Source of the DNA: Chthonomonadales bacterium
Lineage (GTDB): Bacteria; Armatimonadota; Chthonomonadetes; Chthonomonadales; Chthonomonadaceae
Length of the DNA stretch: 15,224 nt
Direction: 5' to 3'
Assembly: GCA_038217285.1 (NCBI GenBank)
Contig: JBBQPO010000150.1
Location: 1 to 15,224, forward strand
Part shown: positions 1,974-7,835 of the stretch, in pieces
How the letters are laid out: every line of letters begins with the position of its first letter
How positions within the stretch are numbered: the first letter of the stretch is position 1
Notes under the pieces: generated by a model
The model's input: only the letters and a program-made list of their open reading frames with translations
The model's database searches: none
What the model was told of the DNA's origin: nothing
Position numbers and translations under genes: made by a program

Positions 1974-4436
1974 TCAGCGGCGGGTGGGATAGGGGGTGTT
2001 GACGCCGCGGAGGGTGTGCCAGAGGACCTCGTTCAGGATCTGCGGGTCGGGGCGGTCGAGGCCGCTCCAGTCGAGGGCGAGCGATTTTTCGGTCCAGTAA
2101 CGTTCGAGGCCGGCCTGTTTCGCAGCGGGCGGGTTCATCTGGTCGAGGGCGATACGGTTGGCGACGCTGGTGTAGGGATGCAGATCGGGCGTGTCGGTGA
2201 AACAGCCGGAGAGCGGCGGCGTCAGGGCATCGAAGCGGTTCATCGGGTCGAGGCCAAGCATCTTCTCGATGGAGCGCAGCATGGAGAGCGTCGTATAGAG
2301 AGTGTGGTCCACATAGCCGCGTCGCGTGTAGGGGCTATAAGCGGCGTAGACGGTGCGATGACCATCGACATGGTCGGGGCCGGACTGTGCGTCGTCCTCA
2401 ATGACGAAGATGCAGGTCTCCTTCCACTCCTTGCTCTTCGAGACCGCCTCGACGACGCGCCCCAATGCCAGATCGTTGTCCGCGACCATGCACTGCGGCT
2501 TCGGATAGTGCGGATCGCGGCCTTCCGTGTGGTCGGAGGGCAGGCTCATGATCATCAGGTTGGGGACGCGGCTCTCCCGGCTCATGCGGCCGTACTCACC
2601 GATAAAGAGATCGGCGCGCTCCTGGTCGCTCTGCAGCAGCGGCCAGTAGACGTAGTTCGGATGGATATAAGGGCGCAGCTCTGCGATCCGGGTGCCGACG
2701 CTCTTCTGAATGCGGCGCCTGCCGCTGAGACGGTCCTCCCAGACCTCTTTCCAGCTCGTGACGGTCGGAGTGAACACCGCCAGCTCGTCGTCGCAGAACT
2801 CCCCGTAGATTCGCAGCGACTTCCCCTTCTTCAGCGCGACGTCCCAGAGCCCGCCAGCGGGCGAGATCGCCATCGCGCAGTCGCCGTCGTCGGGGTAGGT
2901 GCGGTAGCCGGTGTAGAAATGTTCGAGATAGTCGTCCGCGACGGCCTGGGTGCTCCAGGCGTGGCCGTCCGCGCTGTTGGTGCCGGTCACATAGCCGTTG
3001 TCGAAGAGGGTGAACTGTCGGGCCAGCGCATGGGCGTTGGGCGTGATGGTCTCGCCGAGATCGCACAGCTTCGGGTCGCCGTTGCCCTCCTTCATATCGC
3101 CGAACACCTCGTCGTAGGTGCGGTTCTCCTTGATAATGTAGAGGACATGCTTGATCGCGCCCTTGTAGACGGCGAGGGGCGGATCGAGGTCGGCGCGGCT
3201 GCGGTTCCAGTCGTTGTCGGCCGCGACCTGCGCGGTCGCGGCTTTCAGGTCGGCCTTGAGGTCGATCACCGAGACGGTCCCTTGAAAGTCGTGGGCGTTG
3301 CCGGGCTTGCCGAGCACCGTGTTACGCACGGAGCCATTGCCCTTCGTGTTGACGACATAGGCGGCGCTGCCGTCGGGCGCGAGGGCGAGCGCCAGGGGGA
3401 AGTAGCCGGCAGGCCGGTAGCCGCGCACCGTGCCGCTCGGGATGTCGAACTCGCAGAGCGCGTTATCGCCGCCGTTGCAGATATAGAGAGTCTTCCCGGC
3501 AATAGCGAGGGCGCAGGGCATGGAGCCGAACAGGTTGAGCGCACCCCACTTCAGCGGAATAGTCCGGAGGAGCTTCGCGCCGGGAAGGTCGAGGACCGAG
3601 AGGCTGTCGCTCGCGGCGTTGGCGATGTAGGCGATGTCGCCTGCCACGGCGATCCCGGTGGGATGGAGGCCGACCTCCACACGTCTGGTCGTTCCCGTCT
3701 CGCGTTGAATCAGGCTGACCGTGCCGGAAGCGGTCGCCCCGCGTGAATCTATCGCGAGCATGGTGTTGCCACTCGCGGCCATATCGTCGCCGTCTTTGAC
3801 CAGATGTCCGCCCCAGTCGGTGACGATCAGCGTGCGTTCGTCCAAACTCAGCTTCACCTCGAAGGGCAGGTTCTGCACCGGATATTCGCGCACGAAGCGG
3901 CCCTCGGGCAGGGCGATCTCGGCGACGGCGTTGCGGTCGCAGGCGCAGACGAACAGACGGGAGCCGTCGCGGGTGAAAACCATGCCGCCGGGACGGGGGT
4001 TCTCCTTCTCGCCCTCGGCCTGAATAAAGAGCTTTCGGCCCGGCGTCAGCTTGCGGCCCGCCAGGACGTACTCCTGCACCACGCCGTTCTCCACACTTAC
4101 GTAAAGGCGCGCCCCGTCTGGCGACCAGACCGCCCCCCGATAGGCCGCCCCACTCGGCAGCGTAGCCGCAGAATCAGCGATAACGCCTTCCCTGGTAGCA
4201 AGGAAGACGTTGTTCTGATTCAGAACCGCGAAGAACTCCCCGGTGGGATGCAGGGCGATATCGGTCGGTCGCCCGTTGAAGGCGACCGTTCCCGGCGCGA
4301 TGCGGCGGCCGGTCGAAACCACAAATCCGCCGTCCGCCTGTTTGCCCATCTGCAGGATCGGAAAGCGGGCCGCCGTGACGCCGAGTGCGCCCAGCAGCAG
4401 AACGGCCACGAGAGAAATCAAGACTTTGCGTCGCAT
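1974..4436 (-). CDS. Bifunctional YncE-like beta-propeller / alkaline-phosphatase-superfamily phosphoesterase, secreted
   Basis: Start reassigned to ATG 4436 (RBS GGAGG, signal peptide MRRKVLISLVAVLLLGALGVTAA). Propeller repeats include WSPDGARLYV, VGLHPTGIAV and AYIANAASDSLSV. Phosphoesterase motifs include KHVLYIIKENRTYDEVFGD, NSADGHAW and IFVIEDDAQSGPDHVDGHR. Confidence 0.9.
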   Translation of the reverse strand: MRRKVLISLVAVLLLGALGVTAARFPILQMGKQADGGFVVSTGRRIAPGTVAFNGRPTDIALHPTGEFFAVLNQNNVFLATREGVIADSAATLPSGAAYRGAVWSPDGARLYVSVENGVVQEYVLAGRKLTPGRKLFIQAEGEKENPRPGGMVFTRDGSRLFVCACDRNAVAEIALPEGRFVREYPVQNLPFEVKLSLDERTLIVTDWGGHLVKDGDDMAASGNTMLAIDSRGATASGTVSLIQRETGTTRRVEVGLHPTGIAVAGDIAYIANAASDSLSVLDLPGAKLLRTIPLKWGALNLFGSMPCALAIAGKTLYICNGGDNALCEFDIPSGTVRGYRPAGYFPLALALAPDGSAAYVVNTKGNGSVRNTVLGKPGNAHDFQGTVSVIDLKADLKAATAQVAADNDWNRSRADLDPPLAVYKGAIKHVLYIIKENRTYDEVFGDMKEGNGDPKLCDLGETITPNAHALARQFTLFDNGYVTGTNSADGHAWSTQAVADDYLEHFYTGYRTYPDDGDCAMAISPAGGLWDVALKKGKSLRIYGEFCDDELAVFTPTVTSWKEVWEDRLSGRRRIQKSVGTRIAELRPYIHPNYVYWPLLQSDQERADLFIGEYGRMSRESRVPNLMIMSLPSDHTEGRDPHYPKPQCMVADNDLALGRVVEAVSKSKEWKETCIFVIEDDAQSGPDHVDGHRTVYAAYSPYTRRGYVDHTLYTTLSMLRSIEKMLGLDPMNRFDALTPPLSGCFTDTPDLHPYTSVANRIALDQMNPPAAKQAGLERYWTEKSLALDWSGLDRPDPQILNEVLWHTLRGVNTPYPTRR

Positions 4437-4518
4437 GGCGCCTCCACGTCGAATGGTACAACGTCGAATCTTCCGACCGGCCTCTTTCGCTCTCCTCAAA
4501 CCGAGCGGGAAGTGAGAA

Positions 4519-4848
4519 CTACCAGCGCAGTTTGTCGAGCGAGCGATCCTCGTCGCTCAGATCGCTGTCGAGCAGGATGCCCCACTCTTTGCCGCCCTTG
4601 TAGTAGAGGACAGTGCCACAGCCTGTGCATTTCGCGCGGCTGGAGAAACCCTTGCCGACGGGTGGGGTGCGCGACTGCCCGGTGTTCGGGTCGTGCGGGC
4701 GCAGGGGCTTATCGCAGACCGGGCAGCGCCCGAAATCGTTGCCTGCATCCCCCGGCGTGTGGTCTTCAATTGCGTCGGTCGGCGGTTCCGCCGTCTCCGG
4801 CAGCTCGATCACGCCGATATCCGGCGCATCCAACGTCTTTGTACTCAT
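4519..4848 (-). CDS. Small hypothetical protein with CPVC-x28-CTGC (probable Zn-ribbon) and acidic N-terminus
   Basis: A strong RBS (AAGGAGG) precedes ATG 4848. 109 aa with two CxxC motifs. Confidence 0.75.
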   Translation of the reverse strand: MSTKTLDAPDIGVIELPETAEPPTDAIEDHTPGDAGNDFGRCPVCDKPLRPHDPNTGQSRTPPVGKGFSSRAKCTGCGTVLYYKGGKEWGILLDSDLSDEDRSLDKLRW

Positions 4849-4892
4849 CGTTGTTTCCTCCTTATTATAGAACGGGACGTGTCTCACTATCT

Positions 4893-4901
4893 ATTCTAAC
4901 A
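4893..4901 (-). promoter_or_regulatory. Possible extended -10 promoter for the Zn-ribbon gene
   Basis: The minus strand reads TG-T-TAGAAT about 45 nt upstream of ATG 4848, in an AT-richer intergenic gap. Confidence 0.4.
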
Positions 4902-4916
4902 CACTGGGATAAGCCC

Positions 4917-5744
4917 CTAAATCCCCGGTCGCGGAAGGACGGTCAGGAGCGTCTCTTTGCCACCCCGCATGACCTTGACGACGACCGGAAGGCTCGGGAC
5001 GATCAGGGAAGCGGCTTCGTAGAGATCGTTGACATTGTCGGTCCAGCGGTCATCGAGAACGGTAATACGGTCGCCCGGCTGAAAGCCTGCCGCCGCCGCC
5101 GCACTGTCGGCATAGATCTGTGTTACCAGGACGCCGTCGTTCGGGGGCGAGGGCGCAACGGTCAGCCCCCAGAGCGAACGTGGCGCGATCACACGCGCCT
5201 TCTGTGAGCCTGCGAAGAGACGATTCATGAGGCCGGTCATGATGTCCTGCGGCGCGTAGTCGACGGGAACGAACGTCACACGGTTGTTGAGATAGTCGAT
5301 CGTCGTATGGAATCGGGCGAAGAAAGAGAAGCCTACGATGCCGTCCAGCCGGCCTTCCAGGCCGCCCAACGCCTCGACGATGGGGTGATCCAGGATCAGC
5401 GCGCTCAGGTTCTCTATCTTCGTCTCTCCGACCGAGAGCGATTTCAACACGACCTGACCACCGATTGCGAGCATACCCGGTTTCGAGGGCTTGCCCTGCT
5501 GCGGAGGGATCAGGCCGAGTTGGCGGGCAGCGCGCAGGCTGATGAAGGTCAGCGGCGAACCGGTGTCCAGAATCAGACGAAACGGCCCCTGGCCGTTCAC
5601 GCGCACCTGAACGGCGATGTGTCCGGTTCGCAGCACCTCCATGGGAGCGGCGTGAGACTGGGCTCCGGCCTGCAGACCGCCGGAGAAGAGAAACGCCAGG
5701 AGCAGCGTCATTGCGAGGAGGAGAGGACGCCGTGGGGTTCGCAT
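4917..5744 (-). CDS. Secreted retropepsin-like aspartyl protease with C-terminal PDZ domain (paralog 2)
   Basis: Signal peptide; HIAVQVRVNGQGPFRLILDTGS (catalytic D60); LDGIVGFSFF motif; PDZ segment LWGLTV...GVLVTQIYADSAAAAAGFQPGDRITVLD...VKVMRGG. Confidence 0.9.
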   Translation of the reverse strand: MRTPRRPLLLAMTLLLAFLFSGGLQAGAQSHAAPMEVLRTGHIAVQVRVNGQGPFRLILDTGSPLTFISLRAARQLGLIPPQQGKPSKPGMLAIGGQVVLKSLSVGETKIENLSALILDHPIVEALGGLEGRLDGIVGFSFFARFHTTIDYLNNRVTFVPVDYAPQDIMTGLMNRLFAGSQKARVIAPRSLWGLTVAPSPPNDGVLVTQIYADSAAAAAGFQPGDRITVLDDRWTDNVNDLYEAASLIVPSLPVVVKVMRGGKETLLTVLPRPGI

Positions 5745-5746
5745 GG

Positions 5747-6643
5747 TCAGAGCCCTCCCTGTCCGGCAACGACCGGCAGCACGATCTTTTTGCCGTCGCG
5801 CTGCACGGTGAAGCGCACGGTCGTCCCCGCCGCCACCGTTGCGGCGCGTTTCAGCAGGTCGGCCGTTCCCTGGAGATCGGTCACCGGATTGTCCCCAACG
5901 GCCAGCGCTGTGATCCGGTCCCCGACTTTCACCCCGGCTTTCGCCGCCGGGCTGTCTGCCAGTACCGCTGCCACCTGCACGGCATCGGCCTTACCGACGG
6001 CGAACTCGATCCCGAAAAAGCCGCGCGGAACCGGCTCCAGGGGCGTCTTCTGCGCGAAGAGAGAGCTCGCCATTTTCGTCAGGCTCTCCATCTGCGCCAT
6101 GCCTTCTGTCGGCACGGCCTTCGCCGTCGTTATCTCCTTTGCGTTCAGAGGAACCAGGATCAGGCCATGCTGCCGGGTCCATGTCATTTTCGGCTGCGTC
6201 AGATCGATCTCGATACGGAAGTTGGCCAGTAAGTTGAAACCGAACACGCCGTCGATGTGGACGCCGGCCAGGCCCATTGCGTTCATGCCTTTGAGTTGCG
6301 CCGGCGATTCGATGCGGCCCTGGGTCTTCTCTAGCGTCGCGCCGCCCTCCACTTCCAGCCGGTCGAAGACACCCCAGCCGTCTGCAGCCGGCTTTACGCC
6401 GATCTTGCTGGCGATCTCCGCGCTGACGAAGAGGGCAGGCGCTCCGGTATCCAGAATGAAGTTGTACGGCCCGTTGCCGTTCAGCTTCGCCCGGACCAGC
6501 AGATGCTTGGTGTCGGCCAGTCGGTAGGGCACATGGAAGACATTGCCCGGCTTCGACGCGACGTCTACGGCGGGCGGAGGCGCCGCGAGGCTATCGCGGG
6601 CGGTCAGGAGGAGCAGCAGGGCAAGGACAGGCAGGTGTTTCAA
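5747..6643 (-). CDS. Secreted retropepsin-like aspartyl protease with C-terminal PDZ domain (paralog 1)
   Basis: TTG start after an AGGAG RBS; signal peptide; HLLVRAKLNGNGPYNFILDTGA (catalytic D65); IDGVFGFNLL; PDZ segment GFFGIEF...VLADSPAAKAGVKVGDRI...FTVQRDGK. Confidence 0.9.
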   Translation of the reverse strand: MKHLPVLALLLLLTARDSLAAPPPAVDVASKPGNVFHVPYRLADTKHLLVRAKLNGNGPYNFILDTGAPALFVSAEIASKIGVKPAADGWGVFDRLEVEGGATLEKTQGRIESPAQLKGMNAMGLAGVHIDGVFGFNLLANFRIEIDLTQPKMTWTRQHGLILVPLNAKEITTAKAVPTEGMAQMESLTKMASSLFAQKTPLEPVPRGFFGIEFAVGKADAVQVAAVLADSPAAKAGVKVGDRITALAVGDNPVTDLQGTADLLKRAATVAAGTTVRFTVQRDGKKIVLPVVAGQGGL

Positions 6644-6663
6644 GCGTTATCTCCTGAAGGCGT

Positions 6664-7191
6664 TCAAAGGTTGCCGTTGTCGCTGACGGAACGCTGACGC
6701 GGGTTGACCTGCAGGCCCGTGGTATGCAGGTAGGCAATGGCCCGCTGCACCTCCAGGAGTGCCCCGGAGAGCGTGATCTCCACCTGTCCGCCCTCTTCGT
6801 CGTCGAAATAGGCGGTCTCGATGTTGACCACCACGTTGAGATCTTTCCCGACACGATAGAGAATCGGCGCATGGCCCTGCGCGGGATTGACGGTCTTGAG
6901 CAGGATCGAGATCGTATTGGGCTGCGCGATGGCGGCTTCCGGCGCGGAGCCGGTGCGCGGCGTGGCGGAGCCGGGCGCATCGCCCAGCACACCGAGCGAA
7001 CGCAGAAACTCCTGCGCCTGCTCGACCTCGCCGGTCGAGCCTTCCAGCGAAAGGGCCACGTGGCCGGAGTCGCTGGAGATGCGCGCGCGCAGGATATTGG
7101 TAACGACATTGAACATCTTGCCGAGGCGCCAGAGGATCGGCTGCCCGAGGATGTCTTTGCGGGCGTTCAGTTCGACGGTAACGAGGGGCAT
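6664..7191 (-). CDS. Stand-alone protein of two tandem NIL (ACT-like, MetN C-terminal) domains
   Basis: Repeat 1: QPILWRLGKMFNVVTNILRARISSDSGHVALSLEG...AQEFLRSLGV. Repeat 2: APILYRVGKDLNVVVNIETAYFDDEEGGQVEITLSG...AIAYLHTTGLQV. A Pro/Ala-rich linker joins them. No signal peptide. Confidence 0.85.
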   Translation of the reverse strand: MPLVTVELNARKDILGQPILWRLGKMFNVVTNILRARISSDSGHVALSLEGSTGEVEQAQEFLRSLGVLGDAPGSATPRTGSAPEAAIAQPNTISILLKTVNPAQGHAPILYRVGKDLNVVVNIETAYFDDEEGGQVEITLSGALLEVQRAIAYLHTTGLQVNPRQRSVSDNGNL

Positions 7192-7392: not shown

Positions 7393-7419
7393 TATTTTGT
7401 TATTTTGTTATTTTGTTAT
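7393..7419. repeat. 8-bp tandem repeat (TATTTTGT)x3 + TAT
   Basis: Read directly from the sequence, in the AT-rich divergent intergenic region. Confidence 0.9.
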
Positions 7420-7698: not shown

Positions 7699-7794
7699 CT
7701 AAGCGGCCGTCCGCTCAACGCTCGTAGAAATTTCGCGTGCGCTGATCTCGTTGTGCTCGTAGAAAGTACGAACCTTCAGCGGTTGGCCGCTTAG
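7699..7794. repeat. 96-bp element with 28-bp imperfect inverted repeats (MITE-like or structured leader)
   Basis: CTAAGCGGCCGTCCGCTCAACGCTCGTA (7699-7726) against the reverse complement of 7767-7794, CTAAGCGGCCAACCGCTGAAGGTTCGTA: 23/28 identical. Confidence 0.7.
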
Positions 7795-7835
7795 CTATAA
7801 TGTCCTATGGTTGCTTTCAGAAAGGGAGTGTTAGA

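Follow-up and report, generated by a model that had tools for sequence, protein, structure and literature searches.

The C-terminal NIL (C2) domains of MetN bind methionine as a dimer, and PDZ domains bind the C-termini of proteins. Both kinds of domain are encoded side by side in the DNA considered here, a stretch of 15,224 nucleotides (nt) from a Chthonomonadales bacterium of the family Chthonomonadaceae, which is called the window throughout and which is contig C150 of a 6.2-Mb genome in 459 contigs (G000; GenBank assembly GCA_038217285.1). In the window, the gene of a protein with two NIL domains, NIL-NIL, stands directly upstream of the genes of two proteases, A and B, each comprising a retropepsin-like domain and a PDZ domain. 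The locus is read here as two unrelated units that became joined recently, a NIL-NIL protein of the methionine pathway and an old A-B protease pair; the probability of this reading as a whole is put at roughly 0.7.

NIL-NIL and MetN (structures 3dhx, 3dhw and 3tui) have the Pfam family PF09383 in common, and by analogy the tandem domains of NIL-NIL would mimic the methionine-binding C2 dimer. Unlike MetN, NIL-NIL is free-standing, has its two domains in one chain of 175 amino acids (aa) without an ATP-binding cassette ATPase, carries a conserved extra C-terminal tail, and is found in a biosynthetic rather than a transport context. Routes to homocysteine provide further points of comparison. 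According to the available parts of the sources, MetM/MetO of Streptomyces, a ThrC-like enzyme and a sulfur-carrier protein, form such a route (Hasebe et al., cited in PMC13759103; PMC12172450) and are controlled by an S-adenosylmethionine (SAM) riboswitch (PMC12172450), while NIL/ferredoxin proteins (MA1822 and DvMF_0262) are genetically required for homocysteine synthesis by the DUF39 pathway in Desulfovibrio and Methanosarcina (PMC5764234). The cluster in which NIL-NIL stands in other genera of Chthonomonadaceae resembles MetM/MetO, as far as these parts describe it, in that a threonine-synthase-like pyridoxal phosphate (PLP) enzyme adjoins a ThiS/MoaD-type carrier ending in GG, and in having a methionine-responsive RNA control. 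It differs from the Streptomyces genes in that a T-box with an AUG specifier takes the place of the SAM riboswitch and that a third gene, NIL-NIL, is added, which the same parts of these sources do not mention for Streptomyces; the likeness is one of architecture. NIL-NIL shares with the NIL/ferredoxin protein, as portrayed in the accessible text, the tie of a NIL domain to homocysteine or methionine synthesis, but it has no ferredoxin domain, no conserved cysteine and no DUF39 neighbour.

The closest described relatives of the proteases are the retropepsins (MEROPS A2), which are homodimeric, including the bacterial RimB, and of which characterised bacterial examples are rare; pepsin-like (A1) proteases, by comparison, have two homologous lobes with one aspartate each (both from the available portion of PMC11957791). 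A and B resemble the retropepsins and RimB, as presented there, in the single-lobe aspartic domain with a DTG motif and in a predicted dimer held by the DTG loops and the terminal strands. They differ from them in being two diverged, always paired genes instead of one homodimer gene, in their predicted export, and in a C-terminal PDZ domain of the HtrA type. This PDZ domain and the predicted envelope location are shared with HtrA/DegP/DegS and Prc/Tsp, but the catalytic domain is aspartic and not a trypsin-like serine domain, and the NCBIfam cut-offs for HtrA lie above 400. If A and B form a heterodimer, the active site would be built, by analogy with pepsin as characterised in that portion, from two different homologous lobes, which, unlike those of pepsin, are separate polypeptides from two genes.

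The genes and spacers in question are as follows.

6664-7191, minus strand: gene of the tandem NIL-NIL protein, 175 aa, ATG start (open reading frame (ORF) call, Pfam).
6644-6663, minus strand: 20-nt spacer between NIL-NIL and protease A, with a Shine-Dalgarno-like AGGAG (sequence TGA acgccttcAGGAGataacgc TTG).
5747-6643, minus strand: gene of protease A, 298 aa, TTG start (ORF call, Pfam, alignment, AlphaFold 2 (AF2) model).
5745-5746, minus strand: 2-nt spacer between proteases A and B (ORF coordinates).
4917-5744, minus strand: gene of protease B, 275 aa, ATG start (ORF call, Pfam, alignment, tree).

An earlier, sequence-only reading of the window had described three minus-strand genes with gaps of 20 and 2 nt, and the ORF calls agree with it exactly. 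Its identification of a double NIL protein followed by two DTG-protease-PDZ proteins is borne out by Pfam, with all matches above the cut-offs, and so are the N-terminal leaders that it saw on both proteases and not on NIL-NIL: within the first 40 aa, the maximal 9-residue Kyte-Doolittle mean is 3.12 and 2.87 in the two proteases, marking a hydrophobic stretch, and 1.52 in NIL-NIL, which has no such leader. The AGGAG is read 7 nt before the TTG start of protease A, inside the 20-nt gap. This spacer is too short for a separate promoter, and a promoter scan found no promoter-like site in it.

The same reading had further proposed that a metabolite-sensing module is co-expressed with a PDZ-gated aspartyl protease as one system. 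The neighbourhoods bear on this from both sides. Flanks of about 6 kb on both sides of 29 full-length and 11 single-NIL loci were searched with the window proteins, and a pattern scan with one genome per species gave 151 confirmed relatives, from which the best 80 loci were taken. NIL-NIL adjoins the proteases in three of the five genomes of the window's genus (G000, G359 and G369), and the NIL-NIL/A/B block is kept in the three species at 76-81% DNA identity. In the fourth genome (G087), NIL-NIL lies at C92:384-908 and the pair on C30, where the contig ends 964 nt upstream of A and contains no NIL-NIL up to that point; in the fifth (G411), NIL-NIL lies at C107:867-1391 and A on C696, with no NIL-NIL in the 1485 nt upstream of A. 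No protease homologue was found within about 6 kb of NIL-NIL in any of the 26 loci from other genera of the family, and a strong match to A exists in only 9 of the 29 family genomes having NIL-NIL. Viewed from the pair, NIL-NIL is present in 2 of the 80 loci from public genomes, both from the window's genus, and the remaining 78 have no NIL gene; the Planctomycetota pair loci have no NIL-NIL within 4 kb. In the survey of Armatimonadota and Planctomycetota, then, NIL-NIL does not stand beside the pair elsewhere. A NIL-gated protease system is unsupported because the adjacency is confined to part of one genus and because NIL-NIL has another conserved context. The evidence instead favours a recent positional accident in part of one genus, a possibility that the sequence-only reading had itself allowed for. 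What stands of its undescribed proteolytic system is the conserved module of two retropepsin-PDZ genes; NIL-NIL does not appear to be a part of it.

In G411, a fragment of an FGGY kinase (FGGY_N) follows NIL-NIL. An FGGY kinase bridging NIL-NIL and the pair in this genome was considered and rejected, as the FGGY gene that stands before the pair in other genera had no tblastn match in the loci of the genus.

The other context of NIL-NIL is a cluster of a thrC-like and a ThiS-like gene, of which NIL-NIL is the third gene in 25 of the 26 loci of other genera. The ThiS-like gene is directly upstream of NIL-NIL on the same strand (25/26), and it is preceded by the thrC-like gene, which encodes a PALP-family protein with an N-terminal zinc ribbon (24/26). 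The exceptions are L040, which is too short to show the thrC-like gene, and L044, which is without both genes. The thrC-like protein scores 286.6 bits with TIGR00260 (cut-off 167.1). The ThiS-like carrier matches ThiS (PF02597) with an E-value of 2e-17 and ends in ...AIAGG, a Gly-Gly terminus, so that the cluster has a ThrC-like PLP enzyme adjoining a ThiS/MoaD-family carrier that ends in Gly-Gly, the arrangement of the MetM/MetO type. The genome of the window has the thrC-like/ThiS-like pair on contig C31, outside the window, followed by a MoxR-type ATPase and with no NIL-NIL beside it. Two further thrC-like matches are present in this genome, on C277 (34% identity) and C123 (41%), and a separate true ThrC is therefore plausible.

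The cluster is preceded by a T-box. The Rfam family RF00230 is found directly upstream of the thrC-like gene with 97 bits in L042 and 94.5 bits in L056 (gathering score 93); in the window's own genome the match is below gathering, at 70.5 bits and an E-value of 6e-15. The features there are:

L082:3638-3905 (genome G000, contig C31): T-box with AUG in the specifier position (Rfam).
L082:4004-5260 and 5281-5565: the thrC-like/ThiS-like gene pair (ORFs).

Among the 22 upstream regions, 20 carry the T-box core GGUGGNACCNCG, and GAA-AUG-purine occupies the place of the specifier in 16. No SAM element of Rfam was found in the 12 loci checked. Judged by the specifier, the T-box ahead of the cluster reads tRNA-Met. 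The link between NIL-NIL and a thrC-like/ThiS-like cluster under a Met T-box is well supported by these comparisons, and NIL-NIL is taken for a relocated methionine-pathway protein because it is the third gene of this cluster behind a T-box with an AUG specifier.

The protein itself matches NIL (PF09383) in two stretches, with an E-value of 1.5e-17 and 63.6 bits (cut-off 24). Its AF2 model (mean predicted local distance difference test score, pLDDT, 82.9) has two beta-alpha-beta-beta-alpha-beta, ferredoxin-like, units joined by a disordered linker at residues 73-80, and a single model domain superposes on 2qsw with a template modelling (TM) score of 0.75 and a root-mean-square deviation (rmsd) of 2.4 over 81 columns. 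The sole matches of the family profile to the Protein Data Bank are MetN C-terminal domains, with E-values from 2.8e-4 (3dhx, the best) to 0.09. A fold search with the whole model gave TM scores of only 0.3-0.4, to tandem BMC-T and ACT proteins, and the relative orientation of the two modelled domains was unmatched in it. NIL is the sole Pfam family detected, with no ferredoxin domain, and the alignment of 26 sequences has no invariant cysteine. Some homologues are labelled 'L-aspartate semialdehyde sulfurtransferase ferredoxin' by JGI; this label is a mis-transfer.

The last ~20 residues of NIL-NIL (window 6664-6700), HTTGLxVNPRQRSVxDxxNL, are among its best-conserved parts, with R167, N174 and L175 invariant in the alignment, and are modelled as disordered. 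Such a tail would fit a docking peptide for some partner.

The family is small, with 113 homologues at E-values of 1e-5 or below among 259 scored candidates, and its named members belong to Chthonomonadaceae. When 401 genomes of the phylum were searched, full-length NIL-NIL turned up in 29 of the 31 other genomes of this family, with weak single-domain NIL matches only in the remaining G231 and G319, and single-NIL matches only outside the family. The single-domain NIL gene of one locus in another family precedes the gene of a PLP enzyme of Cys/Met metabolism (L073:7205-8404; PF01053, E 2.6e-111), which is a further link between NIL and methionine in the phylum.

NIL-NIL is most likely a ligand-binding regulator of the methionine pathway. 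Its ancestral place would be that of a cytoplasmic, ACT-like third gene after the threonine-synthase-like PLP enzyme and the ThiS/MoaD-type carrier. The two NIL domains would pack like the MetN C-terminal domain dimer and bind methionine, as the likeness to MetN suggests, or a close sulfur metabolite, thereby tuning the pathway. In the window's genus NIL-NIL would have left this cluster, and in three of the five genomes it would have settled immediately before the protease genes, with which it probably shares a transcript by position only.

The main rival, held to be less likely, is that NIL-NIL is a working part of thiocarboxylate-dependent homocysteine synthesis, for instance as an adaptor by which the thrC-like enzyme is handed the ThiS-like carrier or the substrate. 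The third place in 25 of 26 clusters, behind a Met-type T-box, would suit an adaptor equally, and so would a tail that is conserved yet modelled as disordered, as in a docking peptide; NIL/ferredoxin proteins are, moreover, required for homocysteine synthesis in the published account, as far as it is available (PMC5764234). NIL-NIL, however, lacks both the ferredoxin domain and an invariant cysteine, and the window's genus keeps its thrC-like and ThiS-like genes without NIL-NIL beside them. Two family genomes (G231 and G319) have weak single-domain matches only, and the closest solved relatives, the MetN domains, are ligand-binding.

The second unit, the pair of proteases, is constant where NIL-NIL is not. 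The 80 pair loci come mostly from Gemmataceae and other Planctomycetota, with some from Armatimonadota and Abditibacteriales. A is followed by B on the same strand in 76 of them, and in the other four the contig ends within 78 nt of A. Within the order, a strong match to A is present in 19 of 68 genomes; B follows in 17, and the other two are cut by the contig end; outside the window's genus, none of these genomes has NIL-NIL near the pair. Among the genomes of the order and the 80 loci, no case of A without B was found where the downstream sequence is available. The distance from the stop of A to the start of B is at most 4 nt in 54 of 71 measurable pairs and most often 2 nt, as in the window. 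The DTG motif is kept in all 77 A proteins and in 71 of 72 B proteins, the exception reading DLG. One branch, with support of 100, divides the 77 A rows from the 73 B rows in a FastTree tree of 150 sequences, and on this tree A and B are distinct orthologous groups, separate since one old duplication. As judged by its distribution, the A-B module is real, old and conserved across Armatimonadota and Planctomycetota.

Protease A is comprised of a leader, a retropepsin-like domain (~36-160), a linker of low confidence and an HtrA-type PDZ domain (~204-298), and ends in ...GGL (AF2 model); protease B has a leader, a retropepsin-like domain and a PDZ domain, and ends in ...PGI. The two are ~29% identical (tblastn). 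Asp_protease_2 (PF13650) is matched with 29.6 bits by A and 48.4 bits by B (cut-off 24.3), and PDZ_2 (PF13180) with 41.6 bits (E 1.5e-10) and 35.8 bits (E 1e-8), respectively (cut-off 27). The catalytic triplets, D65-T66-G67 in A and D60-T61-G62 in B, lie in a hydrophobic-hydrophobic-x-D-T-G pattern and are invariant in the family alignments, in which the invariant residues after DTG differ, being Q116/M120/N121 in A and D119-H120-P121 in B. The export of both proteins is predicted from the Kyte-Doolittle measure and from the look of their N-termini. The PDZ domain of A superposes on that of DegP (3mh6) with a Z-score of 14.3 and an rmsd of 2.0 over 90 aligned residues at 32% identity; the structure search with A was filled by PDZ matches and says nothing on the protease domain. 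The N-terminal domain of A matches viral and phage retropepsin-like models with E-values from 5.6e-6 to 1e-3.

Two known families were rejected. The clan AA 'DTGA' membrane-anchored protease model TIGR02281 gives 16.2 bits with A and 25.1 bits with B (cut-off 57.95), and the HtrA/DegP/DegQ serine protease model TIGR02037 gives 34 bits (cut-off 416) over residues 215-293, that is, the PDZ domain only. Several sources name the homologues 'htrA 2' or 'serine protease DegQ', labels that reflect the PDZ domain only. Both protease families end in x-G-L/F/I (window 4917-4925 for B and 5747-5755 for A), most commonly KGL, EGL, GGL or RGL in A and AGL, SGL or KGL in B. That the C-terminus just behind a PDZ domain is conserved and hydrophobic suggests that it may bind the protein's own PDZ domain or that of its partner.

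The complex of A 34-162 with B 31-166 was modelled with an ipSAE of 0.84, the best of three controls reaching 0.01. Three runs agree in at least 98% of the contacts, and the pLDDT of the partner is at least 84. The mark for a complex is reached by 116 of 157 solved complexes and by 2 of 215 mismatched pairs, counts that are rough when own alignments are used. The modelled interface consists of the facing DTG loops (A 63-69 and B 58-64) and the C-terminal strands.

The A-B pair as an exported heterodimeric retropepsin with HtrA-type PDZ domains is a plausible mechanism and is favoured here with some reserve; the case for a heterodimer comes mainly from the unbroken pairing of the genes. Each protein would be exported and would contribute one retropepsin-like half-site, with one DTG, and one PDZ domain. 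The heterodimer would have a single catalytic dyad, with one aspartate from each chain, and a substrate cleft made asymmetric by the difference between its subunits, which fits the different invariant loop residues of A and B. In the cell envelope, the PDZ domains would capture C-terminal peptides or use them to gate the protease.

A and B might, alternatively, be independent homodimeric retropepsin-PDZ proteases with different substrates, adjacent as co-regulated tandem paralogues. The characterised retropepsins, RimB included, are homodimeric in the account available (PMC11957791). Both A and B have a full DTG, so each could act alone, and the complex model cannot tell A:B from A:A. Independent enzymes, however, do not readily account for an order and a 2-nt or overlapping spacing that are kept in every locus with room for both genes, in two phyla, nor for the fact that A without B was never seen where sequence is available. 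A and B have, in addition, been separate orthologous groups since one old duplication, with different invariant loop residues. Two homodimers are accordingly held to be possible, at odds clearly below those of the heterodimer.

A 560-aa A-B fusion in a Planctomycetota metagenome-assembled genome (MAG; L178:3950-5632) was not accepted as a natural single-chain form: the PDZ end of A is out of frame and the leader of B is kept, and a frameshift or an assembly error is the most likely cause. Six pair loci (L136, L160, L171, L184, L201 and L205) carry the names 'Actinomycetes bacterium' or 'uncultured Alcaligenaceae' and have Gemmataceae-like A-B pairs, some with like flanks; mistakes in binning or naming are the probable source of these MAG labels. 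A literature search that mostly excluded subscription journals found no published account of a paired or PDZ-bearing bacterial retropepsin, no natural retropepsin heterodimer, and no published NIL protein attached to MetM/MetO.

Several points weigh against two recently joined units of these kinds. Co-transcription of NIL-NIL with the proteases is likely in the three genomes where the genes are adjacent, as the gap is 20 nt and A has no promoter-like site ahead of it, and the adjacency may have a local, lineage-specific regulatory use. The contigs of G087 and G411 are broken, and NIL-NIL and the pair may be a few kb apart there and not in separate loci. On the methionine side, the ordinary thrC equivalog model likewise accepts the thrC-like gene; where the specifier codon falls in the cmscan alignment is taken to follow from the general T-box architecture; the label 'MetM/MetO type' draws on the gene-pair architecture and the family matches; and the binding of methionine by NIL-NIL is presumed from that of MetN. 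As to the proteases, tandem paralogues may stay linked without binding each other, and the A:B model may have passed through mere likeness to solved retropepsin homodimers, which would not separate A:B from A:A.

It is very improbable that the three genes are one system in which NIL-NIL is a metabolite sensor and couples a cytoplasmic ligand signal to envelope proteolysis by the two PDZ proteases, at least in the genus, since the same-strand packing, the Shine-Dalgarno motif in the 20-nt gap, the lack of a promoter-like site before A, the block kept in three species and the conserved ...NL tail of NIL-NIL, a C-terminus such as PDZ domains bind, are set against an adjacency missing in two of five genus genomes, 26 of 26 other-genus loci and 78 of 80 pair loci, a NIL-NIL and tail conserved in 20 family genomes without a strong A match, Planctomycetota pairs without NIL-NIL within 4 kb, different predicted compartments, and another strongly conserved context of NIL-NIL.

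The pair has no constant neighbour beyond A and B themselves. The pair loci of Planctomycetota often have, within 1.5 kb and mostly on the same strand, a protein of 590-690 aa that combines AhpC/TSA redoxin, cytochrome c and Cu2_monoox_C domains; it is upstream in 32, downstream in 26 and on at least one side in 45 of 77 loci (for example L138, L139 and L141, with L141:1701-3620 and L141:5894-7744). Three Armatimonadota loci have a 466-467-aa version, like the Cu-monooxygenase part, beside the pair (for example L119:5354-6757 and L164:6958-8358), and the window's genome has three such homologues elsewhere and none in the window. The Cu-monooxygenase-like protein is a possible functional partner of the pair. 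Phyletic coupling of the two within the order was rejected: the Cu-monooxygenase-like family is multi-copy in 41 of 41 family genomes and the pair is present in 15 of the 41, and in G309 the pair is present with no Cu-monooxygenase-like match. The large flanking proteins of Planctomycetota were also rejected as proteases; single-linkage clustering had put them together with the proteases, but by Pfam they are redoxin/cytochrome c/Cu-monooxygenase-like proteins.

Downstream of protease B the window contains two more minus-strand genes.

4519-4887, minus strand: 122-aa protein with CxxC...CxxC, of no family (weak Pfam match below cut-off only).
1974-4499, minus strand: 841-aa protein with a leader, a beta-propeller and a Phosphoesterase domain (PF04185) (Pfam, NCBIfam).

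The 122-aa protein is found downstream of the pair in the window's genus only, its copy in G087 being 87% identical, and the promoter scan shows a promoter-like TAGATA-18-TATAAT at 4893-4864 ahead of its gene. Homologues of the propeller-phosphoesterase stand beside the pair in three genera of the family, g1, g11 (L120:8527-12357) and g6 (L124 and L127, ~2520-5165), in varying order and orientation, as recurrent and inconstant neighbours. In the sister family f2 (L121, L122 and L123), the pair lies between two same-strand radical-SAM CofH/MqnC-like genes of ~376-390 aa.

For ~1 kb upstream of NIL-NIL the window has no credible ORF. This stretch contains, at window 7393-7419, ~200 nt upstream of NIL-NIL, a perfect tandem repeat of 3.4 copies of TATTTTGT in an AT-richer stretch, and, at 7699-7795 (plus strand), ~510 nt upstream, a sharply bounded dispersed repeat of ~96 nt. 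Other contigs of the genome carry twelve further copies of this dispersed repeat at 85-91% identity and one weaker copy (73%). The ends of the repeat are inverted, CTAAG..GCC and GGCCGCTTAG, a duplicated CTCGTAGAAAT lies inside it, and it has no Rfam match. From its sequence it looks like a miniature inverted-repeat transposable element (MITE) or a repetitive extragenic palindromic (REP) type element, and it could mark a spot prone to rearrangement. Scans of the whole window found no RNA element of Rfam with an E-value of 1 or below and no tRNA.

A bolder view of the pair may be put forward as speculation, with the odds well against it. The A-B pair would be an obligate, envelope-exported heterodimer and a living two-gene stage between the homodimeric retropepsins and the single-chain, two-lobed pepsins. 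Its PDZ domains would read C-termini, the conserved ...G-L/F/I ends being possible ligands, and the redoxin/cytochrome c/copper-monooxygenase-like flanks of Planctomycetota would belong with it to an undescribed pathway in which peptide C-termini are processed or modified.

The proposed NIL-gated protease system should be dropped, which saves effort. The database labels 'aspartate semialdehyde sulfurtransferase ferredoxin', 'htrA 2' and 'serine protease DegQ' are corrected, and the role of the NIL-NIL family is moved to methionine metabolism. For the thiocarboxylate route to homocysteine, a recent discovery, the thrC-like/ThiS-like/NIL-NIL cluster offers a candidate third component or regulator, and that in Armatimonadota a T-box stands ahead of a MetM/MetO-type cluster may be of interest in its own right. 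Little is known of the envelope biology of Gemmataceae and Chthonomonadaceae, in which the protease pair is abundant. If the heterodimer is true, the paired-gene retropepsin would be, within the literature searched, the first natural heterodimeric form, and it would bear on the origin of two-lobed aspartic proteases from single-lobe ones.

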